64,000 nt of DNA, taken from NCBI GenBank assembly GCA_965227295.1, contig OZ245742.1:640001-704000 (forward strand). Direction: 5' to 3'. Both the position numbers and the translations under genes were made by a program. This DNA comes from Leptonemataceae bacterium (lineage in GTDB: Bacteria > Spirochaetota > Leptospiria > Leptospirales > Leptonemataceae). The first letter of the stretch is position 1, and each line of letters opens with the position of its first letter. This document shows, in pieces, positions 41,908-57,395 of this stretch. Below the pieces are notes generated by a model. It saw only the letters and a list, made by a program, of their open reading frames with translations. It was not told the DNA's origin and did not search any database.

Positions 41908-43620
41908 TCACTGCCCACGCTTCTGATTCACCAATCGCTGCAAATCACTGAACTGCAACAGATCCCGCTGATCCTTGCCGGCGGCGATCATCGGAAAGAC
42001 CTTCTCATCCGCGGGGATCACCACTTCGAGAAACGCCGGCTCGTTCGGATCTTTCAGAAAAAACTCCACGCCGTCTTCGATCTCGTCCGGCTTCACGATG
42101 CGTTTGCCGGGGATGTCGAAGGACTCGGCAAGCTTGACGAAGTTCGGATTGTACTGCCACTCGGATTCCGAGAAGCGCTCTTCGAAGAACAGCTCCTGCC
42201 ACTGGCGGACCATGCCCAGAAAATCGTTGTTTAACAGTAAGATCTTCACGCCCAGGTTGTACTGGCGGATCGTCGCGAGTTCTTGAATGCACATCTGGTA
42301 CGAGCCGTCGCCGGTGACGCAGATCACCAGGTCGTCGGGCTTCGCAAATTTTGCGCCGATGGCCGCGGGCAGGCCGTAGCCCATGGTGCCCAGGCCGCCG
42401 GACGTGAGCCAGCGATTCGGTTCGTCGAAGAGATAGTACTGCGCCGCCCACATCTGGTGTTGACCCACGTCCGTCGAAACGATGGCCTTGCCCTGCGTGA
42501 CCTCGTAGATTCTCTCCAGCATGCGCTGCGGTTTGATGACTTCGCTGCTGTCTTCGTACGCGAGCGGAAACTTCTGTTTGTACGCATCTAAGTGATTCAC
42601 CCACTCCGATCGATCTTTCTTTTCAACGTACGGCAGGAGCGCCTGGAGCACGTCTTTGAGATCGCCGGAAACGTAATGATCCACCGTAACGCGCTTGTTG
42701 ATTTCGGCGGGGTCGATGTCGATGTGCGCACGCACGGCCTGTTCAGCAAACTGATCGGCACGTCCCGCAACGCGATCGTCGAAGCGCGCGCCGAGGGAAA
42801 AAATAAAATCACATTCGAGGATGGCCTTGTTCGCGTACGCCGTGCCGTGCATGCCGGGCATGCCCACGGACAAAATGTGCGATCCCGGAAACGCGCCGAG
42901 GCCCATCAACGTACACGTGACCGGCGCCATGGCTTTTTCGGCCAGCGAACGCACCTCGTGCGCCGCGTTGGCGTTGATGGCGCCGCCGCCGACATACAAC
43001 AACGGTCGCTCCGCGTTATTCAGCGCTTCGGCCAGCGCTTCGACATCGCCCTGTACCGGCGGATGCTTCAGGAAACGTTTGCTTAACTTCGGCTCGCTGC
43101 TGAACACAGACGTCGGCGCATTCTGCACGTCTTTCGGAAGATCGATCAACACCGGACCCGGGCGGCCCGTCGTGCACATGGTCCACGCCTCGGCGAAGAT
43201 CTGCGCGAGTTCGTCCACGTCTTTGATGAGCGCGTTGTATTTCGTAACCGGCAGGGTAATGCCGAAGATGTCCGCCTCCTGGAAGGCGTCCGAGCCGATG
43301 GCGGCCGTGGGAACCTGGCCGGTAATGACGAACAACGGGATACTGTCCATCTTCGCGTCGCAGAGGCCGGTGATGGTGTTCGTCGCACCGGGGCCGCTGG
43401 TGACGATGGCGACGCCGGGCCGGCCGGTGGCACGAGCGTAGCCCTCGGCCATGTGCACGGCACCCTGCTCGTGTCGCACGAGGATGTGTTTGATGTTGGA
43501 ATGATACAGTTCGTCGTAGAACGGAAGAATCGCGCCGCCGGGATAGCCGAAGACGAGGTCCACCCCGTGCGATTCGAGGAGTTCCACAAGCAGGCGCGCG
43601 CCGGTTTTCGTAGCAGTCAT
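41908..43620 (-). CDS. ilvB: Acetolactate synthase large subunit
   Basis: [43 protein letters not shown]. Confidence 0.96.
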
Positions 43621-43737
43621 GGTCGAGTATCCTGAAACAGTTTCTCAGATGACAGGATCGCCGGAATAGCCCAGAAAGGCAAGTACTCGCAGGGCCGGAG
43701 CCCGCATCATCTTGAAAGTCCGGAGGATTTCTCTCAT

Positions 43738-44166
43738 ATGATTACACAAAACAACCTGTCCCGCAAAGCATTACTCGGCCGCGCCGGTGCCCTCCTGGCC
43801 GCCGTCGCCGTGGTACCCTACTGCAGCCGCACGGCCCACGCAGCCGATCCGCTCACGGCGTCAGCCCTGGACTGCGTCGGCATCGGGGAAGAGTGTCTCA
43901 CCCACTGCCTCGAAAGTCTGAGCAAGGGCGACGACTCCCTCAAACGCTGCGCCGTCACGGTCCGCGACACGATCACGGCCTGCGAGGCCCTGGCCGGTTT
44001 CTCCGCCGCGAAGTCCGAACACCTCGCCGCGTACATCCCCGTGTGCAAAAAGATCTGCGAGGACTGCCGCGACGAATGTGAAAAGCACGCGAAGCACCAC
44101 GACATCTGCAAACGCTGTGCGGATGCCTGCGCCGCATGCATCGATGCAATGAACGCAGTGGCGTAA
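43738..44166 (+). CDS. Csp1-like four-helix-bundle copper storage protein with Tat-like signal
   Basis: GGAGG RBS; SRKALL signal; 13 Cys after the AHA cleavage site in CxxC/CxxxC motifs. Confidence 0.88.
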   Translation: MITQNNLSRKALLGRAGALLAAVAVVPYCSRTAHAADPLTASALDCVGIGEECLTHCLESLSKGDDSLKRCAVTVRDTITACEALAGFSAAKSEHLAAYIPVCKKICEDCRDECEKHAKHHDICKRCADACAACIDAMNAVA

Positions 44167-44261
44167 TGGATTATGAATTCTTGCGCCAGGACATACAGGT
44201 TTGAAGAGGTCGCGCGGACATTCTGATCCTTGAGAATAGTCTGTGTATCAGGTAAGATTCA

Positions 44262-44369
44262 TTTGGGCGCATCGCCGCTGCGCGGCGACCGGGCTTTCCA
44301 GGGCTCCGCTATCGCTTCGGTCTTTGCTGCGCAAAGACTCGCTTCGCGACCCTTCCAATCCCTTGCGCG
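44262..44369 (+). ncRNA. Flavo-1-like structured RNA / repeat, copy A
   Basis: TTTGGGCGCA...CGGGCTTTCC...ATCCCTTGCGCG; covarying helices with copies B and C. Confidence 0.7.
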
Positions 44370-44391
44370 AAGAAACAAAAAGAACCGCAAA

Positions 44392-45474
44392 ATGGAACTG
44401 AAGGACATCGCATCTTACCAGAAGAGTCTCGATAAACTCGATCTGGAAAACCCGCCGGTCCTCATGGTCTCCGGCACGGACCCCGGTGCGGCCGAGCGCC
44501 TCACCGAACGGCTGCGCGGACGGCTGCGCAAAGAGGTCGGCCAGTACGAGACGCTGATCTTCTCCGGCGAGCAAGGTGACGATGAACGCTTCTTAGAAGA
44601 GATCGCCAACGTGCCGCTGTTCTCCCCGTACCGGCTCATCCTCATTCGCCAGGCCGAGGAGTTGTTCAAAGGCGCGTTGCAATCGAAAGCGCAGCAGTCC
44701 GCGTTCGAGCAGGCCTTTTCCCAGGCGGCCGCGCGCACGCTGGTCTTCCTCGTCTACGAAGGCAGTCCGCCGCAGAAGTTAGTGAAGATCCTGCACGGCG
44801 CCGACAAAGAGCGCGACGGGCTGCTGCATCTCGTAACGCGGGATCTGTTTTCGAATCAGATCCTGGATCAAATCCGTCACGCTGCGAAACGCTCGCAGCT
44901 CAACCTCAGCGAAGAAGCGGTGCACCTCATGCGCGAACACCTGGAACCGCGCGCCGGGGTCATCGAACGCACTCTGCAACGATTGAACGACATGCTCAGC
45001 GAGCAGCAACGCGCGAACGTGATCGGCGTGGACGAGGTTCGCGAGGTCTTGTTTCCGGGACAGGGCGCGAACTCGTTCGCCCTCGTCGATGCCCTCTTCG
45101 CGTTGGACCAGCCCACCGTGCAGCGCGAGCTGGTTCGCTGGAATCCGAACCACGACTCGTTCTTCAGCGTGTTGAAGCTCATGCTCATGCGCGCGGATGA
45201 AATCCGCAAGGCTCGCATCGGCATCGGCATGTCCATGAACGACGCCGAGTTGATCGACTTCCTGGGCCTCAAGTCCCGCCACCCATACGTTCAAAAGAAG
45301 GTCCTCAGCCGCGTCAAAATGGAAGTGAACACGTTCACGCCGCAACGCCTCACGGATATCTACGAATTCCTGATCCAGATCCAGCACGACTTTCGCAGCA
45401 ACGTCTCCGTGCACCGGCACAACCTCATCTTTCAAGAACGCATCAGCCGCGTGTTTTTTCAAACAACGCATTGA
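44392..45474 (+). CDS. holA: DNA polymerase III delta subunit
   Basis: IANVPLFSPYRLILIRQAE, LSEEAVHL, FALVDAL, HPYVQKK. Confidence 0.8.
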   Translation: MELKDIASYQKSLDKLDLENPPVLMVSGTDPGAAERLTERLRGRLRKEVGQYETLIFSGEQGDDERFLEEIANVPLFSPYRLILIRQAEELFKGALQSKAQQSAFEQAFSQAAARTLVFLVYEGSPPQKLVKILHGADKERDGLLHLVTRDLFSNQILDQIRHAAKRSQLNLSEEAVHLMREHLEPRAGVIERTLQRLNDMLSEQQRANVIGVDEVREVLFPGQGANSFALVDALFALDQPTVQRELVRWNPNHDSFFSVLKLMLMRADEIRKARIGIGMSMNDAELIDFLGLKSRHPYVQKKVLSRVKMEVNTFTPQRLTDIYEFLIQIQHDFRSNVSVHRHNLIFQERISRVFFQTTH

Positions 45475-45491
45475 TGATCCGCACTTCTGAC

Positions 45492-45536
45492 ACGCCCCGA
45501 ATCTAAGTGTAAGTGCCCTGAAGTTAGTCCGGGCGT
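45492..45536 (+). other. Hairpin between convergent genes; shares a motif with 53002..53125
   Basis: acgccc/gggcgt and ctaa/ttag stems. Confidence 0.45.
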
Positions 45537-45546
45537 CCGGAACAGG

Positions 45547-46263
45547 TCAATCCGCATAGATATACTGCGCCGGCGCGAGATTCCCGCCGTCGTCGTACTC
45601 GACCTGGCCGGAACCGGTTGCATCGTCGAGCCGATAGATCATCGGTATGTTCGAATCCGCCAGGACAATGCGATCGTTCCCGTCGACCCACAAACCACGT
45701 ATGCCCTGGAACGGCGTGCCGTTGGAACCGTCGTACTCGCTCTGGTTCGTCCCGGACATGTCGTCGAAGCGGTATAACAGGCCGTGGATCAGGTCCGCCA
45801 CCAGGATGCGCCCGCTCGCATCCAGACCGACGCCGAAGGGCCGGTTGAACGTTGTGCCGTTGCTGCCGTCGTACACAACTTCGCCGGCGCCGCTGATGTC
45901 ATCGTAACGATAGAGCTCCCCGCTGAACGTCGAAGTAACGTAAATGCGACCGCTACCATCGACGGTGATGCCCTGCACGTTATTCCAGCCCGGCCGGCTC
46001 AGCTCCGCCTGGTTCGTACCGCTCATATCTTCAAAGCGATACACGAGCGCATCACTGTTATCGTTGACGAAAATCCGCAACGGTTCCGATGCCTCTTCCG
46101 TGATCGGTGCCGGCACTCGCTGTAGTGCCAGTGTTTGCAGCAGGATCGCTCCGGCCGGCCCGCAGGTGATATCCGATGAGTTGCACAATTGCGCCGGCAG
46201 ACAGGCTCCACACAGGGCGGTGAGGATTGCAGCCGGCAGGATCAGCAGTCGCAAAACCGTCAT
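45547..46263 (-). CDS. NHL-repeat / beta-propeller lipoprotein
   Basis: Lipobox-like Cys; repeats GITVDGSGRIYV, GVGLDASGRILVAD, GLWVDGNDRIVLAD; YRF(E/D)DMSGTNQ repeated. Confidence 0.75.
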   Translation of the reverse strand: MTVLRLLILPAAILTALCGACLPAQLCNSSDITCGPAGAILLQTLALQRVPAPITEEASEPLRIFVNDNSDALVYRFEDMSGTNQAELSRPGWNNVQGITVDGSGRIYVTSTFSGELYRYDDISGAGEVVYDGSNGTTFNRPFGVGLDASGRILVADLIHGLLYRFDDMSGTNQSEYDGSNGTPFQGIRGLWVDGNDRIVLADSNIPMIYRLDDATGSGQVEYDDGGNLAPAQYIYAD

Positions 46264-46335
46264 GGGCCGATCCTACTTGATCATGCCGGGCGAGTCGTCT
46301 CGCTCGGCCGAAAGTTACCACTACGGGACTAAGGG

Positions 46336-47055
46336 TTGACGCGAAATGCGGAGACCGGCGTGCTTCGCATCGTGGCTCATCTGGCCGGGAACATAACGCT
46401 GGTGGTCGGCGGCCTGAGCGCGTTCACCGCGGCGCTGTTTTTGTTTTCGCCGAAGGGCCGCCCGGCCTCCCTCTACGTGGGTTACCTGTTGCTGCTCGTC
46501 TTTCTCATCTACGCCACGCGCTTCAGCATTCAGCAGGGCCTGGCGTTTGCGCCGTACCTGGCTTTACTCGCGTTTCCCCTGGCGCCGCTTCACGGCCCGC
46601 TCGTCGAAGCCTATCTGCGCAAATCCTTTTTCGAGAAGCCGAATACTCCGCCGGCTTACACGCCGGCCGCAACAGCGGCGCTGCGGGAATCCGCATCGCG
46701 CACCGTGGAGGAAATCGAAGCACACCGGCGCATCGCCGACGCCGTTCGCGAGGTTTTCAAGGACGATCGCCTGCATTTGAACGAGGAGCTGTCGTTAATG
46801 GATCTTGCGCGCGAGTTAGGAGAGTCGCGGCATACGATGTCCGCTGTGATCAGCGCGGAGTTCGATACGAATTTCTACGGCCTGGTGAATCGCTATCGCG
46901 TGAACGAGGCCCGGGAGCTGCTGCGCGACCCGGACCTCGCCGACGAAACGATTCTGAACATTGCGTATCGCTCCGGCTTTCGCAGCAAGGCCGTGTTCAA
47001 TCGCGTATTCAAAGAATTCACCGGACAAACGCCGGGGGAGTTTCGTGGTTCGTAG
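46336..47055 (+). CDS. Membrane-anchored AraC family transcriptional regulator
   Basis: About 3 TM helices; NFYGLVNRYRV...IAYRSGFRSKAVFNRVFKEFTGQTP. Confidence 0.85.
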   Translation: MTRNAETGVLRIVAHLAGNITLVVGGLSAFTAALFLFSPKGRPASLYVGYLLLLVFLIYATRFSIQQGLAFAPYLALLAFPLAPLHGPLVEAYLRKSFFEKPNTPPAYTPAATAALRESASRTVEEIEAHRRIADAVREVFKDDRLHLNEELSLMDLARELGESRHTMSAVISAEFDTNFYGLVNRYRVNEARELLRDPDLADETILNIAYRSGFRSKAVFNRVFKEFTGQTPGEFRGS

Positions 47056-47069
47056 GCGCACTACCGCCG

Positions 47070-47255
47070 TCAAGAATCCGACAGCAACTTGCCTTTCTTC
47101 GCCCAGTTATCCCGCGATACTTCATCAATGACGATGTACGTGGCTTCCGGCGGTTTGCCGGCGACGTCCTGCATCACCTTCGTGATGCCCGCGACGATGT
47201 CCTTTTTCTGATCGGTCGAGAGTTCGCCCGCGACCTTTACGTTGATGTACGGCAT
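47070..47255 (-). CDS. 4-oxalocrotonate tautomerase family protein
   Basis: N-terminal catalytic Pro (MPYINVKV); DEVSRDNW; 61 aa. Confidence 0.9.
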   Translation of the reverse strand: MPYINVKVAGELSTDQKKDIVAGITKVMQDVAGKPPEATYIVIDEVSRDNWAKKGKLLSDS

Positions 47256-47332
47256 TCACGCAAAACGCGCTCTGAAGGCCAGCGGTCAATCTTTTCAGTT
47301 GTCCCCAGACCCGCCCGCCGGATCGTCGTATC

Positions 47333-48655
47333 ATGCGCCCCGCGGTCTACGTCCTCTCCACCGGCACCGAACTCAGCACCGGCCGATCCATCGATACCAA
47401 CGCCCCGTTCATCGCCCGCATGCTCGCCGAGCGCGGCTTTGCCGTCGCCGGCCTGGGCACCCTGCCCGACGACTACGACATCCTCAAAAAAGAAGTCACC
47501 CACGTCCTGGAACGACCCGACGTCGAGATCGTCATCATGACCGGCGGCCTGGGCCCCACCGACGACGACCTCACCGTCGACGTGCTCGCGGAGATCGCCG
47601 GCTCGGAACCCATGGAAGATCCCGATCATCTGCGCAAGCTGGAAGTCCTCGCGAAACGATTCTCGCGTCGCCTGGACCTGGCAAGTACGCGTCGCCAGGT
47701 CCGCATCGTCAAAGGGGCGCGCACCCTGCGGAATGAACGCGGCCTCGCGCCCGGCATGGCCCTCGAAGTACACAGTGCCGGCAAAACAAAGATTGTCGCC
47801 GCCATGCCCGGTGTGCCGCAGGAAATGGAGCAGATGATGCGCACCGACCTCGTGCCGTTCCTGGAAGAACGTTACGCGGACAGCGAGCGCGGGCGTTCCG
47901 TCTTCTACATCTACAACATGGGCGAGTCGGAGTTCCAGGCCCGCTTCTTCGGTACCGGCCGGGACGCCGCGCGCATGAAAACCGAAGCGGTCTTCGAGGA
48001 ACACGACTTCCCGCCTGGTTTTCGCTGGGGGGTGACCGCGGCCGCCGGACATCTAAAAGTTTTTTTCGAAGCGGAAAGCGCGAGCGCCATCGAGGCGATG
48101 CAGCAGCGCGTCGAGTCCGAACTGCAAAGCCAGTTTCTCACCGACACCGTGGAAGATGCGCTGCACGAGTACTGCCTGGACGCAAACGTTACCATCGCCG
48201 TGGCGGAGTCCTGCACCGGCGGACTCATCGGCAAGATTCTGACCGACCGCCCCGGGAGCTCCGGCTACTTTCTCGGCAGCCTCGCCACCTACGCCAACGC
48301 CGCAAAGGCAAACGTCTTAGGTGTTCCTGAGAGTATTTTAGTCGAGCACGGCGCCGTGAGCGCGGCCTGCGCCCGGGCCATGGCCGAGGGTGCCCTGCGC
48401 GTCCTCGGGGCCGACTACGCCGCCGCGGTCACGGGCATCGCCGGGCCGGGCGGCGGCAGCGACGAAAAACCGGTGGGCACGGTGTTCGTCGCCCTCGCCG
48501 GCAAAGACCGGGCGACCATCGTAGACCATCTCATGATCCCCCTCGACCGCGACCGCATGCGCAACTATACCGCGCGCATTGCACTCTTCGATCTTTACCG
48601 TTACATGCGCGGAACCTACGTGGAGGTCGGGCGTTTCCGTCCGCCCCGATCCTGA
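47333..48655 (+). CDS. cinA: CinA (molybdopterin-binding-like domain + NMN deamidase PncC)
   Basis: GTEL...DTNA, TGGLGPTDDDLT, MPGVPQEM, AESCTGG, HGAVS, TGIAGPGGG. Confidence 0.93.
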   Translation: MRPAVYVLSTGTELSTGRSIDTNAPFIARMLAERGFAVAGLGTLPDDYDILKKEVTHVLERPDVEIVIMTGGLGPTDDDLTVDVLAEIAGSEPMEDPDHLRKLEVLAKRFSRRLDLASTRRQVRIVKGARTLRNERGLAPGMALEVHSAGKTKIVAAMPGVPQEMEQMMRTDLVPFLEERYADSERGRSVFYIYNMGESEFQARFFGTGRDAARMKTEAVFEEHDFPPGFRWGVTAAAGHLKVFFEAESASAIEAMQQRVESELQSQFLTDTVEDALHEYCLDANVTIAVAESCTGGLIGKILTDRPGSSGYFLGSLATYANAAKANVLGVPESILVEHGAVSAACARAMAEGALRVLGADYAAAVTGIAGPGGGSDEKPVGTVFVALAGKDRATIVDHLMIPLDRDRMRNYTARIALFDLYRYMRGTYVEVGRFRPPRS

Positions 48656-49197
48656 TGCCGTTGGATCTTACCGACTACTACGCATTGCTCACGTTGCCGG
48701 ACGACGAACTATTGCAGCAATGCAAACGCAGCAACCACCAGGCCTCCGGCCCCGGCGGCCAAAAGCGCAACCGGGTCTACAGCGCGGTGCGCCTGGAACA
48801 TGCGGCGGCGGACCTCCGCGCGGAAGCGTCCGAGTACCGCGAAGCCGGGCGCAACTTAACAGACGCTCTGCAAAAGTTACGCCTGGCCGCGGCCTTCCAG
48901 GGGGCGGCCCTGGTTCCGTTTGTTCCGGCCGAAGATGCGCCGCCGGCGGAAATCCCCGAAGCGCCGCCGGAGTATCCGGCGTTCCGTGCGAAGATCAATC
49001 CCGGCCACCGGGACTTCCCCGCCGTAGTTCTGCTCGCACTGATCGCCCTGCGCCTGGGCCGGTCGGAACCCCGGCCGGCCGCCGAACGCCTCGGCGTGAC
49101 CACGTCGCAACTCGTCAAGTTCCTGAAGATCGACAAGGCCGTGCTCGCCCGGGCCAACGAACTCCGCACGCGCGCCGGCCGACCACGACTCCAGTAG
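48655..49197 (+). CDS. Peptide chain release factor-like protein (GGQ)
   Basis: ASGPGGQKRNRVYSAVRLEH; C-terminal AAERLGVTTSQLVKFL HTH-like segment. Confidence 0.82.
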   Translation: MPLDLTDYYALLTLPDDELLQQCKRSNHQASGPGGQKRNRVYSAVRLEHAAADLRAEASEYREAGRNLTDALQKLRLAAAFQGAALVPFVPAEDAPPAEIPEAPPEYPAFRAKINPGHRDFPAVVLLALIALRLGRSEPRPAAERLGVTTSQLVKFLKIDKAVLARANELRTRAGRPRLQ

Positions 49198-49335
49198 CGC
49201 CCCGCAACAATCCCGTGGCGATTCAATACCGCCGGACGTCGCCCCGGGATACGTGTCTATTTTATCCACGTCGCAGTTTTTCCTAATGCGACATAAAATC
49301 TTGCCGCCATTTCGCGGCGTGTAACACTGGTACAC

Positions 49336-50466
49336 ATGCTGCGCCTTCTGCATTGCTCCGACTTACATCTCAGCGCCCGGGACTCCGACTCCAACGAACG
49401 TGAGTACAGCCTTGATGTCCTCCGGGAAATCGTCACGCATGCCGAACGCGAGGAGGCCGCCGCCATCCTCATCGCCGGGGATCTCTTCAACACCTTCTCC
49501 GACGCCGAGGCCCTGCGCGCCCCGGTGCGGGACATCCTCGCTCAGTACTCCGGCGAGGTGTTTTACGTACCCGGCAACCACGAGGAACTGGAGCGGGGCC
49601 GCAAAAGTCTGGCCCGCCTCGACCTGGCGCCCCTCCAGGTTCTGCAGGAGCTGCCGGCTTCCCTGCTGCGCCGCGAGTACAACGGACTTACGCTGGAGAT
49701 CGTAAGCATCCCGCACCAGAAAGAGTACGGCGACGCACCGTCCCTCGGACTCCCGGCGAAGGACGCAGATCTGCGCATCGTCATGGCCCACGGCATTGTC
49801 GCCGACCTCGCTTACTCCGGGCCGGCGGGCGCCGAGGAAAACGAAGCCGGCATCCTCGACCCGCGACTCTTCGTCGGTCTGGAAGCAGACTACGCCGCCC
49901 TGGGTCACATCCACGCGCGGCGCCTGGAAAGCCGCAACGGAGTTACGTTCTGTTATCCCGGTTCGCCCCGGGTCTGGCGGCGCGGCGAAAGCGGTGAGCG
50001 CACGGTGGCCCTGCTGGATGTTAACGCCGGTGGCTCCTTCCACGTTCGCTTCGTACCGATCCAGACGGCCGGAACCTACCGGCGCGTGGAGTTGCCGCTC
50101 TCGCTACAGGGCGAGGCCCCGGAGCTCTACGACGCCGACCTGTGGCAACCCCAGGACTACGTGGACCTGCGCCTCAGCGGGCTCGTGGAAGATGAAAACA
50201 CCGTCGTCAACCTCGAAGGTGAACTGCGGCGACAGCACGGGCAACGCGTACGGCGCTTCGAAGTCCGCCGGGACGATGTGGAAGTCCTGGAAGGCGTCTC
50301 CGGCGAACCGGTGGCCCGCAAGTTCCTGGAACTCTGGAAACAGCGGGAACCCGTAGTGGCCCCGGGCAAAACCGACGACGAACGCGAATCGTACAACGTC
50401 TACCTGCGCGCCCGGGAACTGGCCCTGCACGAAATCAAACGCGCCCTGGAAGGCCGCATACGCTAA
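49336..50466 (+). CDS. SbcD/Mre11/YhaO-like metallophosphoesterase
   Basis: HCSDLHL, AGDLF, PGNHE, MAHG, YAALGHIH, YPGSP. Confidence 0.92.
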   Translation: MLRLLHCSDLHLSARDSDSNEREYSLDVLREIVTHAEREEAAAILIAGDLFNTFSDAEALRAPVRDILAQYSGEVFYVPGNHEELERGRKSLARLDLAPLQVLQELPASLLRREYNGLTLEIVSIPHQKEYGDAPSLGLPAKDADLRIVMAHGIVADLAYSGPAGAEENEAGILDPRLFVGLEADYAALGHIHARRLESRNGVTFCYPGSPRVWRRGESGERTVALLDVNAGGSFHVRFVPIQTAGTYRRVELPLSLQGEAPELYDADLWQPQDYVDLRLSGLVEDENTVVNLEGELRRQHGQRVRRFEVRRDDVEVLEGVSGEPVARKFLELWKQREPVVAPGKTDDERESYNVYLRARELALHEIKRALEGRIR

Positions 50467-50502
50467 CATCCCAACACAAACTTTTAGCCAGGATCGATCA
50501 AC

Positions 50503-52908
50503 GTGAGCACCCAATCCAACGACCTCTTCGCCCCGACCGCCGTCACTCCCGACGACGCTCCGGAAAATCAACTGCGCCGCCTGGAACTGCGCCGTTTCGG
50601 AAAGTTCCAGGATCGCAGCTTCGACCTGGGCCCGTCGCTCACCATCTTCCACGGAAAGAACGAGGCCGGTAAAACGACCCTCTTCGACGCCCTGTCCGAG
50701 GCGTTGTGTCGCCCCAAGGGCTCGCACCGCATGGGTAAGGCCATTCGCGAACGTTACGGGGACGAGTACGAAGTCGGCCTCATCGACGAACACGGCGAAG
50801 ATCTGCGCGCCGGGAAAAACGGCGCCGTCTTTTCCGAGGACGAGTTTCAGAACCTCTACGCCGTGCGTGCCGGAGAAAACGAGATCCGCCTGGACGCGGG
50901 CGGCAAGTGGGTGGAGCGTCTGAAGGCCCGTCTGTTTTCGGCGGACGTGGACCCGGCCGTCATTGCAAAGAACCTCGGAGAAATCGTGAGCGAGGACAAA
51001 CGTCGCTCGCATCAGAAAGGGCTCATCGCCGCGCAAAAAGAGTACGACGATCTCTCGGCACAGCTGGATCAGAAACGCAGCGAGTACGACGGCATCGTCG
51101 CACGGGAACAGAACATTGAACGTTTGAATGCGGCCCTCGCGGAGAATCAACAAAAGATCACGGCTTTGCAAGAACGCTTAAGTACCGGCGAACAAGAGTT
51201 AGTCCGCGAAGACCGCATTCGCGAGCGCGCCGGTTGGGCCCGGCGCTGGAAGGACCTCGTCGATCTACAGAAAGCCGAGCAGCGCGCCCGGGATCTGAGC
51301 CGCTATCGCACGGACGAACACGCGGACCTGGATCGCATCGAACAGAGCATCGCCGATGTACGCACGCAAGCCGGCTCGGTCCAGGCCGGTCTGGAGCACA
51401 AGAACGGCGACCTGGAACGCCTGCGCAAAGACCTGAGCGCCCTGGAAGAACTTTCGCCGGCCTTGAAAGCCCGGAGCGAGACCGCGGCGCTCTGCCTGGA
51501 TCGCATTCAACAGAACGTACACAATCGCTACAGCCGCCAGGTGGTGCGCTGGAACAAATGGATGCTCGGCGCCGCTACGCTCTTGACCGCGATCGGAGCG
51601 GGGCTGGGGTTCACGCTGTCCGGAGAAGTTGCTTACATCGGTATCGGCGTGGCCCTGGTCGCGGCGAGTGCCCTGGTTTCGTTTGCGCGCAGCAAAGAAC
51701 TCGTCACCGACGACGGCCCGCATCGGGAACTGCTGGCAACGTTGCAGGACGAATGGCGGTCTCGTTTTGACGAAGATCTCAGCGCGACCAACAGCCTGGA
51801 CGCTCTGCGCGAAGAACTTGTTCGCCGCCGCCATCGCTATGAGAGCGAACACCTCCGCGAAATGGATCGGCTGGCCGCTGAAATCCGCAGCCTGGAAGAA
51901 AACGTGCGTACCCTGGAGCAACAGCGCGACGACCTCGGCCGGCGCATGACGGAGCTGGAGGAACAGCGCAATGCCTGGCTGCGCGAACACGATGTCCGCG
52001 ACCGCGATGAATACCTGGAACGTTGCCGGGCTTTCGCGGCGGCACGATCCTCCGCGACGGAACTGGAACAGCGAGTGCTGCGTGAGTTAAACAAACTGCA
52101 CGCGTCCGCGAGAGACGGAGAGGCCCCGGCTTCGGGCGATCCGGAATCTCTCCGCGAGGAATGCGAACGCCGGCTGCGCGACTTTGATCGGGAAGGCGTA
52201 CCCGAAAGCGGTCGGAGCGATGCGGAGTACCGTCGCCTCAAGAACGAAACGGAAGCAGCCCGGAGCGATCTGGCAGCCTTGCAGCAGGAGAATCGCAGTC
52301 TCGCCGAACGCCGCGCCGGGGACGCCGGAGAACTACGTGGCGCCACCGCGCGGCTCAGCCGGGAAATCGGCGAGCTGGAACAACGGCTCCTGTATGTGGA
52401 GCAGGACATCGCAAAGAAGAAACTGGATCGCAAGGCGGCGGGCCTGGCGCTGGAAATCTTTGAAACACTGCAACAGGACAATCATCTCATGCTGGAAGAA
52501 CTCGCGCGGGATCTCCAGGGTTCCGTGGCAAACATCCTTCCGGAACGCGACGTGCGCTTTGCCGAGCCGTCGTTGAACATGCAGACCTTCTCGATGCAGG
52601 ACGCCGGCGGCACCGAACGTCCGGTGGCCCAACTATCCCGAAGTACGGCGGACTCATTCTTGTTCGCGGCGCGGGCGGCCCTGGCCCGTCGCAGCCACGA
52701 CGATGGGCGCCCCGGCATTCTGGTTTTCGACGAGCCCTTCGCGTCCTTCGACGACGAGCGAGACGTACGCTGTCTGGAGTTTCTACGAAAGTTTCAGAAC
52801 GAAACCGGCTGGCAGATCATCCTCTTCACGAAAGACCGCCGCTTTTTCGAAGAAGCGCGCACTATGTTCCACGACGCGGTCGCACACGAACTGGAAGCCG
52901 CCCGGTGA
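50503..52908 (+). CDS. SbcC/Rad50/YhaN-like coiled-coil ATPase
   Basis: RFGKF, GKNEAGKTT, long coiled coil with 2 central TM helices, LSRST, VFDEPFASFD. Confidence 0.9.
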   Translation: MSTQSNDLFAPTAVTPDDAPENQLRRLELRRFGKFQDRSFDLGPSLTIFHGKNEAGKTTLFDALSEALCRPKGSHRMGKAIRERYGDEYEVGLIDEHGEDLRAGKNGAVFSEDEFQNLYAVRAGENEIRLDAGGKWVERLKARLFSADVDPAVIAKNLGEIVSEDKRRSHQKGLIAAQKEYDDLSAQLDQKRSEYDGIVAREQNIERLNAALAENQQKITALQERLSTGEQELVREDRIRERAGWARRWKDLVDLQKAEQRARDLSRYRTDEHADLDRIEQSIADVRTQAGSVQAGLEHKNGDLERLRKDLSALEELSPALKARSETAALCLDRIQQNVHNRYSRQVVRWNKWMLGAATLLTAIGAGLGFTLSGEVAYIGIGVALVAASALVSFARSKELVTDDGPHRELLATLQDEWRSRFDEDLSATNSLDALREELVRRRHRYESEHLREMDRLAAEIRSLEENVRTLEQQRDDLGRRMTELEEQRNAWLREHDVRDRDEYLERCRAFAAARSSATELEQRVLRELNKLHASARDGEAPASGDPESLREECERRLRDFDREGVPESGRSDAEYRRLKNETEAARSDLAALQQENRSLAERRAGDAGELRGATARLSREIGELEQRLLYVEQDIAKKKLDRKAAGLALEIFETLQQDNHLMLEELARDLQGSVANILPERDVRFAEPSLNMQTFSMQDAGGTERPVAQLSRSTADSFLFAARAALARRSHDDGRPGILVFDEPFASFDDERDVRCLEFLRKFQNETGWQIILFTKDRRFFEEARTMFHDAVAHELEAAR

Positions 52909-52916
52909 TCGAAGCC

Positions 52917-52973
52917 GCAAATCCGCACCCCGGAGCCCCGCGGATAGAGCGGGGCTCCGGGGTGCGGATTTGC
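52917..52973. repeat. Perfect 25-bp inverted repeat with 7-nt loop
   Basis: gcaaatccgcaccccggagccccgc-ggataga-gcggggctccggggtgcggatttgc. Confidence 0.95.
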
Positions 52974-53001
52974 TTGATGGATTTTTGATTTTCCAGGCGA
53001 G

Positions 53002-53125
53002 GACGCCGTTCCGGTCCGCCTTACGACGTTCCCCGGCATGTCCTCCGTCCGTCGGCTGGAACCAGCTGTACCCATACAACCCTTACCAGAATCCAGGCAC
53101 AACTTACCCTGCGATTCGGGGCGTC
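53002..53125 (-). ncRNA. Candidate structured ncRNA of unknown class
   Basis: GACGCC/GGCGUC closing stem, further CCG/CGG and UCGC/GCGG pairs, central bubble, inner hairpins; folded by eye only. Confidence 0.35.
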
Positions 53126-53167
53126 TAAGAATTACGAACGGGATTTCCAGCAACAGCGACACGAACC

Positions 53168-54277
53168 TCAGTTCCCGCCGCCACCGCCACCGCCGCCTTG
53201 ATCGTTGTTACCACCGCCGTCCTGCTGGTTGAACGACTCCGGCTTCTTCTCGTAGTACTTCATTCGCACGAGGACGTTCACTTCTTCTTCATAGATTTCG
53301 TCACGAGAATCGGTGAGGTCACGACGATACATGGCCGGCACGCGTAGATCGAAGACCGGGTGCAGCTTCTTCGGCAGCACGTACGGGTTTTCCGTCCAGT
53401 TCATGGTAATGTCTTCGAGCGACGGAGTCTTCGGTTCTTCGAACAGGCCCTCTTCGGTAAGGCCGTGCACGTTGTGAAGCGCGTAATTGTCGAACGGGTA
53501 TTTCAGCGCGTAGATGAACGCGGCGTTGATCTTTGCCAGGCGCGCCATGCGAATGCTCGCAATGTAGTACTCGATGCGCTTCTTGCGATGGCCCGGCTGG
53601 ATCTTCTGGTTCTTCGTAAGATTGCGGTCAACGTTCAGAGCCAGGTAACGCACCTTCTTCGCGATGCCCAGGTGTTCGTAACCTTTCTCCACGTTCTTTT
53701 CCATGCGATACTTGTTCTTCGCCCAGTGCACCTCGCGCGGATCGTAACGACGCGCGGTGAGCGGGGCGTCACGGTCGTAGTTGAAGTCCCGCCGCTTGCG
53801 ACTGCCCGGCCCGTACTCCACTCCGACATCCACAACGGTCATGTCCTCGGGATTGTCCGGGTTCTTCTTTTCGATGGAGTCGCGGAGCATCTGCTCGGTA
53901 CGGTCCAGGTAAAACTGGGACAGATCTTCCAGCAAACGCTCGGAGCGAACCTGGGCATCGAGGAAACGATTGTACGCGTTGATGTAGTTGCCCTCGAAGT
54001 AGTAGATCATGCCTTCCTGGTAGATGCGCTTGATCTCCTTAAAAAGGTCTACGCGCTCCCCTTCCTGGTAGAGCGAGTCCCCTTCCCGGGGAGGCTGGTA
54101 GCAAGTCGGCCAGGGCTCGCAGGGGAAATTGTACACGATCGGCTTCATGACCCGGAGGTAGCCCATGAGCTCGATGCGTTTGTCCTGGGCCTTTTCGGCG
54201 ACGGAGTAGGCTCCGGCGGAGGCCGGCAGCAGCCACAGCCCGACGAGAAGGATGGCGATCATTTTCTTCGATTGCAT
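53168..54277 (-). CDS. Exported Leptospira conserved protein (LIC11274-like)
   Basis: Signal peptide; KRIELMGYLR...PIVYNFP; KRIYQEGMIYYFEGNY; gene order with DUF2225 and truA. Confidence 0.75.
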   Translation of the reverse strand: MQSKKMIAILLVGLWLLPASAGAYSVAEKAQDKRIELMGYLRVMKPIVYNFPCEPWPTCYQPPREGDSLYQEGERVDLFKEIKRIYQEGMIYYFEGNYINAYNRFLDAQVRSERLLEDLSQFYLDRTEQMLRDSIEKKNPDNPEDMTVVDVGVEYGPGSRKRRDFNYDRDAPLTARRYDPREVHWAKNKYRMEKNVEKGYEHLGIAKKVRYLALNVDRNLTKNQKIQPGHRKKRIEYYIASIRMARLAKINAAFIYALKYPFDNYALHNVHGLTEEGLFEEPKTPSLEDITMNWTENPYVLPKKLHPVFDLRVPAMYRRDLTDSRDEIYEEEVNVLVRMKYYEKKPESFNQQDGGGNNDQGGGGGGGGN

Positions 54278-54434
54278 AACGATATCCGAAATTCGTGGAT
54301 TTCTACTACTGTAAGCTCCAGGCGGTCGGCACCGCCGGAGCGGGCGCAGAGACAGCCCGCGCTAAGTTTCCTATCGGAAATTCAAGACAGAAACCTGATT
54401 GCCTGCAACGGAAATTTCGGGCATTATGGCAACT

Positions 54435-55325
54435 ATGGCAGCAGCGAAGACCAAGGCGATTTCGTACCGTTCCAAGAAAGAGACCCGGTGTCCGGTCTGT
54501 AACTACGAATTCGCCCAGGAAAACATGCACTCCGGCGGCGGCCGGCTCATTGCCGGAAAGCTCACCGAGGAACTTCGCCGCCTGTACGAGGTCAGCAAGA
54601 AGTACGGCCGCGTCTATCCCCTGGCCTACGAAATCGTCACCTGCCCGCAGTGTCTCTATTCCAGCTTTCCGAAAGACTTTGAAAAGCTTGAGCCCGCGGA
54701 GGCCGCCGAGCTCAAGAACGCCGGCCAGGAACGACGTACCGGCATTGAACGCATCATCGGCCCGGTGGACTTCAACGAGGACCGCCACCTGGTGCTGGGG
54801 GCGGCCTCCTACATCCTGGCCATCGATTGCTACCAGAAGCGCGACACCGGCGTGGCCCCGACGCCGAAAAAGGCCATCTGCTCCCTGCGCGGGGCCTGGC
54901 TCTTCGGCGATCTACACGAAGAGTTCCCGGACATCGGCTTCAACAAAATCTCGGATTTCCTCTATATGAAAGCCGTGACCTACTACCAGCCGACCCTGGA
55001 TATTATGAGCACCGGCCGAGAACCCCACGATCAGTTTCTGTCGCTGCTGGGTCCGGACACGGACAAGAACTGGGGCTTCGACGGCGTCATCTACATCAAC
55101 GGTTATCTCACGAAGAAGTACCTGGACCGCCTGGCGCCCACGAAAGAGAAAAAGATCGAAATGCTCGACCTCTGCAAACGCCACCTGGGCAAGTTGTACG
55201 GCATGGGCCGGGCCTCATCTTCCAAGCCGTCGGTAATCATCGACCTCGCCAAGGATTGCTACGAGGCGATTTCCGAGGAACTGGATGAACTCACCGGCGC
55301 CAACGCCGAGGCCGCCGCGGGTTAA
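54435..55325 (+). CDS. DUF2225 domain protein (Zn ribbon)
   Basis: CPVC...CPQCLYS; SLRGAWL. Confidence 0.85.
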   Translation: MAAAKTKAISYRSKKETRCPVCNYEFAQENMHSGGGRLIAGKLTEELRRLYEVSKKYGRVYPLAYEIVTCPQCLYSSFPKDFEKLEPAEAAELKNAGQERRTGIERIIGPVDFNEDRHLVLGAASYILAIDCYQKRDTGVAPTPKKAICSLRGAWLFGDLHEEFPDIGFNKISDFLYMKAVTYYQPTLDIMSTGREPHDQFLSLLGPDTDKNWGFDGVIYINGYLTKKYLDRLAPTKEKKIEMLDLCKRHLGKLYGMGRASSSKPSVIIDLAKDCYEAISEELDELTGANAEAAAG

Positions 55326-55348
55326 ACGCAATCCCGGCTCGCTGAAGC

Positions 55349-56185
55349 ATGTCCCGGTACGCTCTGGTCCTGGAGTACGACGGCGGCGGTTATGCCGGTT
55401 TTCAGTTCCAGGCCGGCCGCGATACCGTCCAGGAGCGTTTGCAAAGCGCGCTGAGCACGTATCTGCGTGAGCACATCACCATCCACTGCGCGGGGCGAAC
55501 GGACGCCGGAGTGCACGCCACCGGCCAGGTCATCTCCTTCGATTCGCAACACGAGGATCTTTCGCAAGACCGGCGTTTCCTGAAAAGCGTCAACGCCATT
55601 TTGCCCGCGGACATCGCCGTGCATTCGGTGGACGCCGTGCCGGCGGATTTCCACGCGCGTTTCTCCTGCATTGCCCGCAGCTACGAGTACTTCATCTGGA
55701 ACGATCCCATCAAACCCGCGCTGGGCAAGGACCGCGCCGTGTGGATTCGTTCACCGATCTTCGACGATACGATGATCGAGCGCACGAACGCGGAGTGCCG
55801 GGAACTCCTCGGCAGCCAGGACTTTGCCGCGTTCACCCGCGCCGAGTACCGCGACGAGGTCACCATTCGTTATCTCGATACCCTGCGCCTGGATCGTCTC
55901 CACGATCCCGCCTCGGACCGCGCTTCGCTGCTGCGCCTGTCCATTCGCGGGAACGCCTTCTTGCACAACATGATTCGCATCCTCGCGGGCACTATCGTGG
56001 ACCGCGCCCAGAACAAAATCACCGCGCCCCTGGTGGAAATACTCCACGGCCGGGAGCGCACGGCAGCGGGTCGCACCGCTCCTCCCGGCGGGCTGTATTT
56101 TCGCGCCGCGTTTTACGACCCCGCGGACGTCGGCGACGCAAGGTCCCTGCGCACACTGGAAAAATATCCGCGCTTTCGGACATAA
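55349..56185 (+). CDS. truA: tRNA pseudouridine(38-40) synthase
   Basis: LEYDG, AGRTDAGVHA, FHARF, GNAFLHNMIR, TAPPGGLY. Confidence 0.96.
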   Translation: MSRYALVLEYDGGGYAGFQFQAGRDTVQERLQSALSTYLREHITIHCAGRTDAGVHATGQVISFDSQHEDLSQDRRFLKSVNAILPADIAVHSVDAVPADFHARFSCIARSYEYFIWNDPIKPALGKDRAVWIRSPIFDDTMIERTNAECRELLGSQDFAAFTRAEYRDEVTIRYLDTLRLDRLHDPASDRASLLRLSIRGNAFLHNMIRILAGTIVDRAQNKITAPLVEILHGRERTAAGRTAPPGGLYFRAAFYDPADVGDARSLRTLEKYPRFRT

Positions 56186-56266
56186 GTCGCGGTTTTGGGT
56201 GAACAGAAAACAACATGCGGCCCTCTAACTCTGCGGGTGCTATCGCCGCTGCCTGTGCTCAGGTCT

Positions 56267-56383
56267 TGCGTTAGCGATTGGAGGGGTGCGCGTTAGCGCA
56301 GTCCGGAGGGCGAAGCCCGGAGGACCGGAGCGAAGCGGAGCCCCGGAAAGCGCGCCCCGAGCGCAGCGAGGGAAACGCCCAGA
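56267..56383 (-). ncRNA. Flavo-1-like structured RNA / repeat, copy B
   Basis: Minus strand TCTGGGCGTT...CGCGCTTTCC...ATCGCTAACGCA. Confidence 0.65.
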
Positions 56384-56452
56384 CTAACATTATTTGAATA
56401 CACATTAGTAATTTCGATTTACTGCAATAAATCCAGTGATTCTTGAGATTTT

Positions 56453-56567
56453 TTTGGGCGCCTCGCCGCTACGCGGCGACCGGGCTGCTACAGGCTCCGC
56501 CTTCGGCTTCGGTCCTCCGCGCTTCGCGCTACGGACTCGCTACGCGACCTTCCGCATCCCTGGCGCG
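56453..56567 (+). ncRNA. Flavo-1-like structured RNA / repeat, copy C
   Basis: TTTGGGCGCC...CGGGCTGC...ATCCCTGGCGCG. Confidence 0.7.
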
Positions 56568-56720
56568 AAGAATTGTCTGTTCGAACATGAGCCGGCATGC
56601 CGGGGCACGTTGCTCTTTCATCCATTCGACCGCCTTTCCCGATTTCGGTGGTTCGTTAATTTCTTGAAGGCGCGGGGCGTTCCGAATCTCTATCCAAATT
56701 CCACCGCGATCCGCGTGCTC

Positions 56721-57368
56721 ATGAAGTTTTCCGCTTTCAGTTTCCCTGGTTTGTCCCTCGCCGCCCTGGTGCTCGGCATCCTGCTGGCCGTTCCCTCCGA
56801 ACTCGCCGCCCAGGATCGCCCGTCGCGGCTGCGTCATGAGTTCGGTATCTGGGTGGGCGCCTCCAATCCCGTGCCGGGCACGGCCGTGGACGAAATCCTG
56901 GACGCGAACGTCGGCGGCGGCGGCTTTTATCGTGTCAACTGGCCGTGGGTCCTGTACACGGAGTTCGGTTTCTCGTGGAGCCAGTACTTTTCCCGGACGA
57001 CGCAGACGCTCACCGCGGCCCCGGTCTACGGCGCCATCAGCTACCAGTTGCCCATCGAGTTCAAAGTGCAGACCTTTTTGAAAATCGGGGGTGGTGCGGC
57101 CTGGCTGGAAGTCCGACCGGCGAACCGCAGCGGTTGGGAGCCGCTCTTTTATTCGGGCGTGGAGTTCTCGATTCCCGCCAGCCGGCGTCTGCGCGTGGGC
57201 CTGCGCCTGGACTACAATCTCATCTACGAAAAACACCTGGATCCGCCGGAACAAAATCTGCTGCTGCTCCTGGGCAACGACGATCCGCGCTTCCAGGAAG
57301 CCGAAGTCTACGAAATCAACAACGGCCACTTCTTCCACTTCGGCCTCTTCGTCTCGTATGCGTTCTAG
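56721..57368 (+). CDS. Outer-membrane beta-barrel protein
   Basis: Signal peptide, amphipathic strands, C-terminal FGLFVSYAF. Confidence 0.8.
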   Translation: MKFSAFSFPGLSLAALVLGILLAVPSELAAQDRPSRLRHEFGIWVGASNPVPGTAVDEILDANVGGGGFYRVNWPWVLYTEFGFSWSQYFSRTTQTLTAAPVYGAISYQLPIEFKVQTFLKIGGGAAWLEVRPANRSGWEPLFYSGVEFSIPASRRLRVGLRLDYNLIYEKHLDPPEQNLLLLLGNDDPRFQEAEVYEINNGHFFHFGLFVSYAF

Positions 57369-57395
57369 TCCGCTAAGTGTCGGCCGATAAATATT

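Follow-up and report, generated by a model that had tools for sequence, protein, structure and literature searches.

A Flavo-1-like repeat with a covarying seven-helix fold, present in 212 copies in a Leptonemataceae genome

Short elements that diverge in sequence while keeping a common base-paired fold may be copies of a structured RNA or units of mobile DNA, and the locus described here raises the question of which of the two applies. The analyzed window is a 64,000-nt stretch of the Leptonemataceae bacterium assembly GCA_965227295.1 (positions 640001-704000 of contig OZ245742.1, a single contig of 5,938,550 bp; genome of approximately 5.94 Mb, 59.8% G+C), and it contains three copies, A, B, and C, of one element. 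The first-pass annotation had marked these copies, had likened them to the Flavo-1 RNA family, and had interpreted them as a multicopy structured RNA or a non-autonomous mobile element. The copies could be recovered where they had been noted, and a covariance model termed R1 lengthened each of them slightly: copy A covers 44262-44372 on the plus strand (111 nt; 97.6 bits, E = 1.4e-19), copy B covers 56264-56383 on the minus strand (120 nt; 115.8 bits, E = 1.1e-23), and copy C covers 56453-56570 on the plus strand (118 nt; 110.6 bits, E = 1.6e-22). The three sequences are alignable end to end with a mean column identity of 77%. The pairing first described for them was also found as noted, with a terminal helix (P1) of GCGCA/TGCGC in A, GCGTT/AACGC in B, and GCGCC/GGCGC in C, a next long-range helix (P3) of GGG/CCC in A and C and GCG/CGC in B, and an inner hairpin of GTCTTTGC/GCAAAGAC in A and GTCC...GGAC in B and C. 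At a probability of roughly 0.55, the element is a non-coding, structure-dependent amplifying repeat of the kind represented by repetitive extragenic palindromes (REP) and bacterial interspersed mosaic elements (BIME) or by miniature inverted-repeat transposable elements (MITE), a distant and enlarged relative of Flavo-1 in about 210 copies.

The multicopy status proposed earlier was supported by a genome-wide count. A BLAST search of the genome with the three copies revealed 201 merged places, and three rounds of nhmmer to convergence with a 121-position profile yielded 212 copies, of which 113 were on the plus and 99 on the minus strand; a covariance model was also built, and all 150 of the 150 candidates scored were matches to it. 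The unit is approximately 110-135 nt long and is composed of a short T-run, GGGCG ... CGC, and GAAGA. In the orientation used by the first-pass annotation, the closing helix P1 pairs GCGNN with N'N'CGC (44267-44271 with 44364-44368 in copy A), and P2 is a side hairpin (44272-44288). P3 (G-N-G with C-N'-C; 44291-44293 with 44360-44362), P4 (U-N-N with N'-N'-A; 44295-44297 with 44356-44358), and P5 (GGG(C) with (A)CCC; 44300-44303 with 44350-44353) constitute a three-part stem with purine-rich internal loops. Inside P5 are a small hairpin Pa (44308-44315), a variable hairpin P6 (GGUC...GACU; 44319-44339), and a variable hairpin P7 (44340-44348), and these three terminal hairpins are free in both length and sequence. 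The T-run of copy A lies at 44262-44264 and its tail GAAG at 44369-44372; all of these plus-strand positions are taken from its row in the alignment A3 described below, and P1, P2, P3, P5, and P6 were likewise recovered in the RNA minimum-free-energy fold of copy A. In copy B, P2 has an internal loop UC/UC, which is GA/GA on the opposite strand.

The fold of the family of about 212 copies comprises seven covarying helices and conserved unpaired stretches, e.g., CUCCGCUUCGCUUCGGUC. RNAalifold applied to a sequence-only alignment recovered the long-range helices alone; the hairpins were missed because their lengths vary, and a structure set by hand on nine seeds was therefore used. For these nine seeds, RNAalifold predicted 31 pairs, and compensatory changes were present in 15. 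Model R1 was built from the nine seeds with 38 pairs set by hand and searched against the window and 59 genome loci, i.e., the 60 clusters richest in copies, which contain 129 of the 212, and the 130 matches at E ≤ 0.001 make up alignment A3. In A3, where cells count copies and not events and where subfamilies exist, 93.3% of 4534 cells were paired, compared to 74.5 ± 0.4% in shuffled alignments (n = 500) and 29-47% with slid partners; 34 of the 38 pairs had changed on both sides, and the covariation score was 0.381 versus 0.106 after shuffling. None of the 500 shuffles attained any observed measure.

Since A3 had been fitted to the structure, the test was repeated on a structure-blind nhmmer alignment of 164 distinct full-length rows. 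The five top column pairs by mutual information with average product correction, namely (10,113), (36,106), (86,97), (32,110), and (9,114), were all predicted base pairs, each 96-99% Watson-Crick with 2-4 Watson-Crick types and 14-22 standard deviations above the all-pair mean; all four Watson-Crick types were present at (10,113) and (36,106). Helix variants could be found in many combinations across copies. In 102 pairs of nearest-neighbor copies, with a median identity of 0.887, there were 238 base pairs changed on both sides versus 124 on one side, when 28 double changes are expected under independent sites, and the long-range helices behaved likewise (P1, 24 double changes versus 2.3 expected; P3-5, 43 versus 4.6). 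Selection on pairing, or at least its maintenance, as claimed earlier, is supported by the A3, structure-blind, and nearest-neighbor tests. Folding energies of single copies were not significant compared to shuffles (z of -0.09 to -1.83), and the evidence for the fold is therefore covariation and not stability.

The ends of the unit could be defined from conservation and from identical copies. Upstream of GGGCG, T occurs at 52-84% in six adjacent positions, and downstream of CGC the motif GAAGA(G)TT is conserved at 56-72% in its first five positions, with conservation gone beyond these ends. Two copies, at 2,300,844 and 2,537,958, are 100% identical over 117 nt in unrelated flanks, with the identical stretch running from TTTTT to the end of GAAGA. 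Two more copy pairs of 97-98% identity showed the same behavior, one of them without the T-run. No target duplication was detected at fixed offsets (at most 10 of 179 copies at any offset or length; 2-10 bp in the test designed for MITEs), at free offsets, where the longest shared word equaled the shuffled expectation, or at the exactly defined ends of the identical copies. The ends are weakly inverted (TTTTTGGGCGCC versus the reverse complement TCTTCGCGCC); a search for terminal inverted repeats of at least 10 nt revealed none beyond the 5-bp covarying P1 and these weakly similar T-rich and GAAGA ends, and flanks tested for extended terminal pairing showed no covariation. The copies have no conserved -10 or -35 box, TANNNT being present at its best position in 23 of 179, and no terminator was found in them; on the plus strand the T-run comes before the fold, and on the minus strand the fold is followed by an A-run, which is not the layout of an intrinsic terminator. 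A promoter in the head flank was considered and rejected, as it was not general among copies.

Neighboring copies follow a strict rule. All 35 pairs less than 400 nt apart are inverted, 20 of them head-to-head and 15 tail-to-tail. Seven of the 15 tail-to-tail pairs are exactly 11 nt apart, which is the mode, so that their conserved tails abut. Head-to-head spacers measure 21-89 nt in all but two pairs, one of which overlaps while the other is separated by 277 nt. Copies B and C are arranged head-to-head around an AT-rich spacer of 69 nt (56384-56452; 26% G+C), in which one weak sigma-70-like match is directed toward copy B. When eleven head-to-head spacers of 50-72 nt, including this one, were aligned with MAFFT, most aligned as an AT-rich module of about 68 nt (...ACATTA..AAGTTAGCAT...TTTTAACTRAAAAT...GAAATTG...), and the triplet of copy, spacer, and copy may be a composite unit of approximately 310 nt.

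The position of copies relative to genes was evaluated with crude gene calls (maximal open reading frames (ORFs) with a filter on the difference between G+C at third and second codon positions, GC3-GC2; 4624 genes covering 87% of the genome). By these calls, 201 of the 212 copies are intergenic, and the 11 that overlap ORFs include 10 at the 5' end of maximal ORFs and one within a 104-amino-acid ORF; copy A is among the 5'-end overlaps, inside an over-long holA ORF. Between co-directional genes, 50 copies have the same sense as the genes and 74 the opposite sense, which makes orientation nearly random, and 46 further copies lie between convergent and 31 between divergent genes. Heads and tails adjoin gene starts and stops about equally. 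No replication-direction bias was found, with 49 plus and 45 minus copies on the right replichore and 64 plus and 54 minus on the left. In DNA contigs of one study that cover 43000-58000, contigs break off at the repeats and cross-joins between copies occur, and no presence/absence variant of the copies was seen there; the repeat breaks short-read assemblies at every copy.

Comparison with related genomes revealed a family that is widespread and uneven in number. R1 detected it in 23 of 31 related genomes (10 of 18 others of the same family and 12 of 12 of a second family in the order) and, in a sample of 121 genomes drawn from the whole phylum, in 18, among them 4 of 8 from a third family. 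The scaffold and the unpaired core are conserved in copies from nine other genomes, while their hairpins differ in length and sequence. In the sister family, copies have 62-73% G+C content within loci of 44-47%. A 20-nt core pattern occurred 145 times in the present genome (reversed control, 4), 11 and 10 times in two congeners, G001 and G002 (controls, 4 and 4), and 0-11 times in 16 other members of the family, and these counts point to a species-specific burst of copies. The site downstream of truA, which holds copy B, the spacer, and copy C here, is short and element-free in both congeners. In G002, in which the gene ahead of holA is a different one, no element was visible in the approximately 350 nt before holA. 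In two species of another family, a copy is present at the same place, 4 nt past an ABC-transporter gene. The genes next to copies in low-copy genomes are mutually unrelated and include an ABC transporter, a restriction-modification pair, PDZ/CoiA-like genes, and a pyrophosphatase. The burst and the identical copies at unrelated sites agree with the part of the first interpretation that proposed a non-autonomous mobile element.

The other part of that interpretation, a structured RNA, was less well matched by the pairing statistics, which look more DNA-like. Among 4475 pair cells, G-U and U-G together number 30 and A-C and C-A together 32; with G-U occurring about as seldom as A-C, wobble is tolerated on neither strand. 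The 206 differences from one Watson-Crick pair to another between nearest neighbors include 110 flips (G-C to C-G or A-U to U-A), 66 of the transition type, which can pass through G-U, and 30 others. Mismatches retained by the model on the plus strand are pyrimidine-pyrimidine in 209 cases and purine-purine in 52, and the pyrimidine-pyrimidine mismatches are therefore of the G-A type on the minus strand. The composition of the plus strand of the element is 41% C and 33% G. On the minus strand, a GNA triloop closed by C-G could be observed in 198 of 381 terminal hairpins (133 of the 212 copies were parsable), and P7 also has GNNA tetraloops there. C-GNA-G loops are a hallmark of very stable DNA mini-hairpins, e.g., d(GCGAAGC), as reportedly described by Hirao, Yoshizawa and co-workers in the 1990s. 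Under DNA parameters, the minus strand has the higher predicted stability in 171 of 179 copies, and under RNA parameters in 153 of 179. Because of the Watson-Crick-only pairing, the dominance of flips, and the C-GNA-G triloops on the G-rich strand, the folded form is probably a G-rich single strand of DNA.

The name Flavo-1 was maintained in kinship and not in membership. Flavo-1 was defined in 2010 for Bacteroidetes (Weinberg et al., PMC2864571) and is an orphan motif defined computationally. With Rfam 15, no match to Flavo-1 or any other family was obtained on the three copies, either at the gathering score over the whole window or at E ≤ 10 over 44000-57000, and nine copies from relatives gave no match either; the absence of a match to RF01705 refutes the name by the test that the first-pass annotation had itself proposed. 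RF01705 (gathering score 42 bits) had 0 matches in this genome and in congeners G001 and G002. In each of the 12 genomes of the sister family it had 1-23 matches, and one of 18 genomes from the same family as the present one was matched as well; in the sister family its loci differ from the R1 loci among the matches listed. When R1 was run with filters off, 3 of 6 Flavo-1 loci of related genomes were matched exactly at the Flavo-1 position on the opposite strand (26.0 bits, E = 2e-4; 17.7 bits, E = 0.015; 10.8 bits, E = 0.53), and other R1 matches in Flavo-1 loci, at E > 2 and elsewhere in the loci, were noise. The sense of Flavo-1 in Rfam is the antisense of the orientation used by the first-pass annotation, i.e., the minus strand of copy A.

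In the orientation of the first-pass annotation, the Flavo-1 loci read, in order, T-run, GGG, P1, P2 hairpin, CGGGCU, two paired bases, a short stem, CUCC, AAUC-hairpin-GAUU, UCC, a short stem, AUCCCU, and P1'. The present element has the same order of features, and T-run, P1, and P2 flank the Flavo-1 core in those loci; P1 and P2 lie outside the Rfam model. In place of AAUC-hairpin-GAUU, the present element has GGUC-hairpin-GACU together with two extra hairpins, Pa and P7. GAUUG(G)AAG and GGAAAGC occur both in the Flavo-1 consensus and in copy A read on its minus strand: the consensus ccGAUuGaAGc ... gCGgAaAGCgg corresponds to a minus strand of the element readable as [stem] A [UU] G(G)AA [stem] ... 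[stem] (U)GGA [AA] G [stem]. For copy A the series is GGG-A-UU-GGAA-GGG ... CCC-UGGA-AA-G-CCC, and its inner half differs from Flavo-1. Flavo-1 is one long hairpin of 76 model positions, whereas the interior of the present element is a junction with Pa and P7 around P6, the counterpart of the inner stem of Flavo-1, and the element is far more GC-rich. Both are multicopy, occur in either orientation, and have no fixed relation to neighboring genes, which for Flavo-1 is reported in PMC9723704. The element is therefore an expanded relative of Flavo-1 with added arms and not a member by the Rfam model. No published description of the enlarged element was found; searches for a Leptospira or spirochaete repeat of this type yielded statements at census level, and supplements of the MITE census of Leptospirales may list the element.

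How such an element would multiply can be outlined as follows. It would spread through copying that depends on its G-rich strand (the minus strand of copy A) in folded, single-stranded form, most likely as DNA recognized by a trans-acting enzyme, and the insertion would leave no target duplication. Only lineages that keep the fold would go on being copied, and the arms may be corrected against each other while folded; with such fold-dependent copying and arm correction, pairs are proposed to stay Watson-Crick and to change by whole-pair swaps. Any effect on neighboring genes, on mRNA ends or promoters, would be secondary.

Several observations weigh against this reading. Known single-strand DNA transposons show a replication-direction bias, and the copies here show none. 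Most copies are old, with only 12 of 130 at nearest-neighbor identities of at least 0.97 around the median of 0.887, and because pairing has long been kept in many separate old copies, a host or RNA function fits as well. Gene conversion instead of transposition could yield identical copies at two old sites. The burst rests on the 20-nt core pattern, which could miss diverged copies in congeners, and of the more than 2000 first-look candidates there, 116 were scored in the covariance-model search. RNA would be suited by the purine-rich internal loops, as by the GNA and GNNA loops, and the near-lack of wobble could stem from a very GC-rich, strongly selected RNA. A search for the Pfam domain Y1_Tnp PF01797 of IS200/IS605 transposases and REP-associated tyrosine transposases (RAYT) gave 0 matches at E ≤ 0.001 in this genome, with the control positive in 6 of 14 known genomes; the TnpB zinc-ribbon domain PF07282 also had 0 matches in this genome, as did Y2_Tnp, for which the control was silent everywhere. 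Finally, unannotated transcripts matching Flavo-1 are mentioned for a Leptospira long-read transcriptome in a preprint (10.1101/2023.03.29.534852).

Part of this evidence would be expected if the element were a functional structured RNA in the Flavo-1 (minus-strand) sense, working in cis (3'-end protection, processing site, or protein docking) or as small RNAs, with its spread being incidental; this account is a serious rival, although less probable than the repeat reading. In its favor, seven covarying helices and unpaired stretches like CUCCGCUUCGCUUCGGUC are kept across genera and into a second family, the family extends to the 18 of 121 genomes across the phylum, copies have 62-73% G+C in sister-family loci of 44-47%, and a copy lies 4 nt past the ABC-transporter gene in two species of another family. 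The symmetric purine-rich internal loops (GAA/GGA type) resemble a form typical of RNA protein-binding motifs, the minus sense is co-oriented with flanking genes in a weak excess (74 versus 50), and genes are read in from the tail 107 times versus 81 from the head. However, orientation is near random, and approximately 40% of the copies would be transcribed in the wrong sense; the copies have no promoter or terminator of their own, copy numbers differ more than tenfold between congeners, and orthologous sites are empty there. RNA families evolve through wobble intermediates, but G-U is no commoner than A-C here (30 versus 32 of 4475) and flips dominate the double changes. The transcripts of the Leptospira preprint (10.1101/2023.03.29.534852) speak for the RNA account; in Flavobacterium psychrophilum, on the other side, the Flavo-1 matches are described in PMC9723704 as lying in sense or antisense of transcribed regions indistinctly, with many outside, and so as unrelated to transcription units.

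Old copies that remain paired, and that are placed between genes only, could also be host-adopted elements of DNA architecture like the BIMEs of E. coli, i.e., cruciform-prone or protein-bound intergenic sites (for a nucleoid protein, gyrase, or polymerase I) at which both strands matter. The symmetric Watson-Crick-only constraint is what would be expected if both strands must fold, and the strictly alternating neighbors with two spacer classes, abutting tails and the conserved AT-rich head module of about 68 nt, would fit. The account is nevertheless unlikely, as a branched seven-helix fold with conserved single-stranded joints exceeds the needs of a protein-bound palindrome, the strand asymmetry (41% C and 33% G on the plus strand; GNA loops confined to a single strand) is unexpected for a symmetric duplex site, and a core host role is hard to reconcile with copy numbers that differ tenfold between congeners. 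It is highly improbable that the element is a classical MITE mobilized by a DDE transposase. Leptospirales are MITE-rich, with a median of 154 per genome by MITE-Tracker according to PMC11602168, the ends of the unit are weakly inverted (TTTTTGGGCGCC versus TCTTCGCGCC), and an IS5-like element (DUF772 and DDE_Tnp_1) that occurs in several copies holds a copy of the repeat near one end. Against this, target-site duplications are absent, there are no terminal inverted repeats of at least 10 nt beyond the covarying P1, the flanks do not covary, and the IS-borne copy, a member of a single subfamily of about 8, lies inside the IS at a distance of about 116 nt from its end, as a passenger would. Chance likeness or a composition artefact of GC-rich intergenic DNA, for which the single-copy folding energies no better than shuffles (z of -0.09 to -1.83) could be cited, is already refuted by the covariance-model E-values of 1e-19 to 1e-23 for the three copies, the 212 copies, the core pattern at 145 versus 4 in the reversed control, and the 0 of 500 shuffles attaining the observed covariation.

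The amplifying-repeat reading can be carried one step further, tentatively and at a confidence below even. Flavo-1 and the enlarged form might together be a widespread, unrecognized class of structure-dependent mobile elements in Spirochaetota and Bacteroidota, propagated as a folded single strand (probably DNA, G-rich) by an enzyme unrelated to the Y1, TnpB, or DDE partners, with arms rebuilt or corrected during copying. Arms treated in this manner would explain the Watson-Crick-only pairs, the G-C to C-G flips, and the swaps of whole hairpins in a fixed scaffold.

Comparison with known repeats revealed partial likeness to several of them. With REPs, BIMEs, and REPINs of E. coli and Pseudomonas, the element shares intergenic placement, hundreds of copies, structure formation, and the absence of target duplication. 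BIMEs show an alternating-orientation organization with linkers, and here, too, neighbors are always inverted (35 of 35) with distinct head-head and tail-tail linkers. REPs are targeted by IS621 and IS1111-type elements, and the present repeat is likewise the target of an IS110-family element. In contrast, REPs are single palindromes of 20-40 nt and the present unit is a branched fold of 110-135 nt with seven helices, and REPs and REPINs have a RAYT (Y1), whereas no Y1/RAYT gene is detectable in this genome. The ends of IS200/IS605 elements and palindrome-associated transposable elements (PATEs) likewise lack inverted terminal repeats and duplications, use folded single-strand DNA hairpins as signals, and have a fixed left-flank sequence (here the T-run) and a fixed cleavage-like right-end motif (here GAAGA); unlike them, the present element occurs in a genome without Y1 transposase or TnpB and has no replication-linked orientation. 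MITEs, ERIC, Correia, RUP, and BOX elements are alike in size class, intergenic dispersal, species-specific bursts, and predicted RNA or DNA structure, and BOX also in its modular variable parts, but the present element has no terminal inverted repeats, target duplication, or matching transposase ends, and its covariation is spread over seven helices and not one long palindrome. GC-rich hairpin elements of organelles (yeast GC clusters and the 'repetitive hairpin-forming elements' of sponges) reportedly multiply as islands in AT-richer genomes. They share with the present element the GC-rich, hairpin-forming character seen in the sister-family loci (62-73% versus 44-47% G+C), and differ in that hosts and sequences are unrelated and the hairpins simple or double.

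Other mobile DNA of the genome was also compared with the repeat. The sole IS110-family element of the genome (G000:C1:95126-96740; approximately 1489 nt), with a transposase of 403 amino acids (PF01548 and PF02371), is inserted precisely inside one repeat copy, where it separates ...CGCAUCC from CUCACGCGAAGAG; apart from a shared CC no sequence is duplicated, and the two halves rejoin into an intact repeat with matching P1; the repeat marks insertion targets for IS110-type elements. The IS5-like element is present at G000:C1:38226-39631 and about seven related places, e.g., 5697358-5698763, and carries a copy of a single repeat subfamily, which looks like a passenger because of its internal position and its one subfamily. 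Ten reverse-transcriptase genes were detected, mostly identical multi-copy ORFs, including those at G000:C1:40063-42428 and 764570-766935, and two of the units, 2366 nt in length, are 99.9% identical; these genes may belong to group II introns, and the genome therefore has had several bursts of mobile DNA. Reverse-transcriptase elements were considered as a partner of the repeat and rejected, as the single copy with mapped ends does not adjoin a repeat.

About 210 diverged copies suffice to fix the fold by covariation and to show the behavior of an amplifying repeat and not of a gene set. The exact unit ends, the absence of target duplication, the rules of inverted pairing, the C-GNA-G loops on one strand, and the wobble-free pairing are signatures that can be tested. 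Since 2010, Flavo-1 has figured as one of the most abundant 'small RNA' families of Rfam, without a function (PMC9029176 and PMC2864571). If the mobile reading is true, many 'sRNA' annotations in Bacteroidota and spirochaetes would be mislabelled repeats, and the mobilizing enzyme is to be found; if the RNA reading is true, the element would be among the most elaborate multicopy RNA folds in bacteria.

In the window, copy A precedes holA, which encodes the DNA polymerase III delta subunit (44392-45474, plus strand; translation and Pfam PF06144 DNA_pol3_delta, E = 9e-8). The distance given earlier was correct, as the ATG at 44392 is 22 nt past the end first noted for copy A, and it is 19 nt past the tail defined by the model. 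The truA gene (55349-56185, plus strand; translation and Pfam PF01416, E = 6e-29) stops 78 nt ahead of copy B. A search for related loci with holA revealed none, TruA fell into generic clusters of a protein atlas, and EF-Tu gave matches of 68-75% spread over many phyla; FlaA genes are present in the genome and SusD was not detected, which identifies it as a spirochaete. A motif TTAAATTCTTGAA(T/G)GCG at about 56655-56700, ahead of the gene after truA, is common to both congeners (L156:1340-1400 and L157:1325-1385) and may be the promoter of that gene; the block of copy B, spacer, and copy C is positioned between truA and this motif.

In a distant spirochaete (G099:C99:8816-11568), two same-sense copies flank genes for an EcoRI-like endonuclease and a Dam-class methyltransferase. 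In the present genome, same-sense copies separate gene-poor, low-GC3 stretches at G000:C1:2279651-2289796 and 2367716-2381510. A PT-HINT/DUF6973 polymorphic-toxin module followed by a small ORF is encoded in one of the low-GC3 stretches, and no Pfam match was obtained in the other; neither of them (2.28 and 2.38 Mb) contains a transposase, and the arrangement is suggestive of orphan toxin-immunity cassettes in arrays that the repeat divides.

The window also contains, at 52916-53085, another high-copy repeat that is unrelated to the first. The only Rfam matches in 44000-57000 are micro-RNA models on its perfect 25-bp hairpin (52916-52974), far under the gathering scores. Its core of about 80 nt (approximately 53000-53080) has roughly 190-200 BLAST matches in the genome, of which about 30-50 also include the adjoining hairpin, and contig depth reaches 2000-2400 at 52916-53085, compared to about 150 otherwise.

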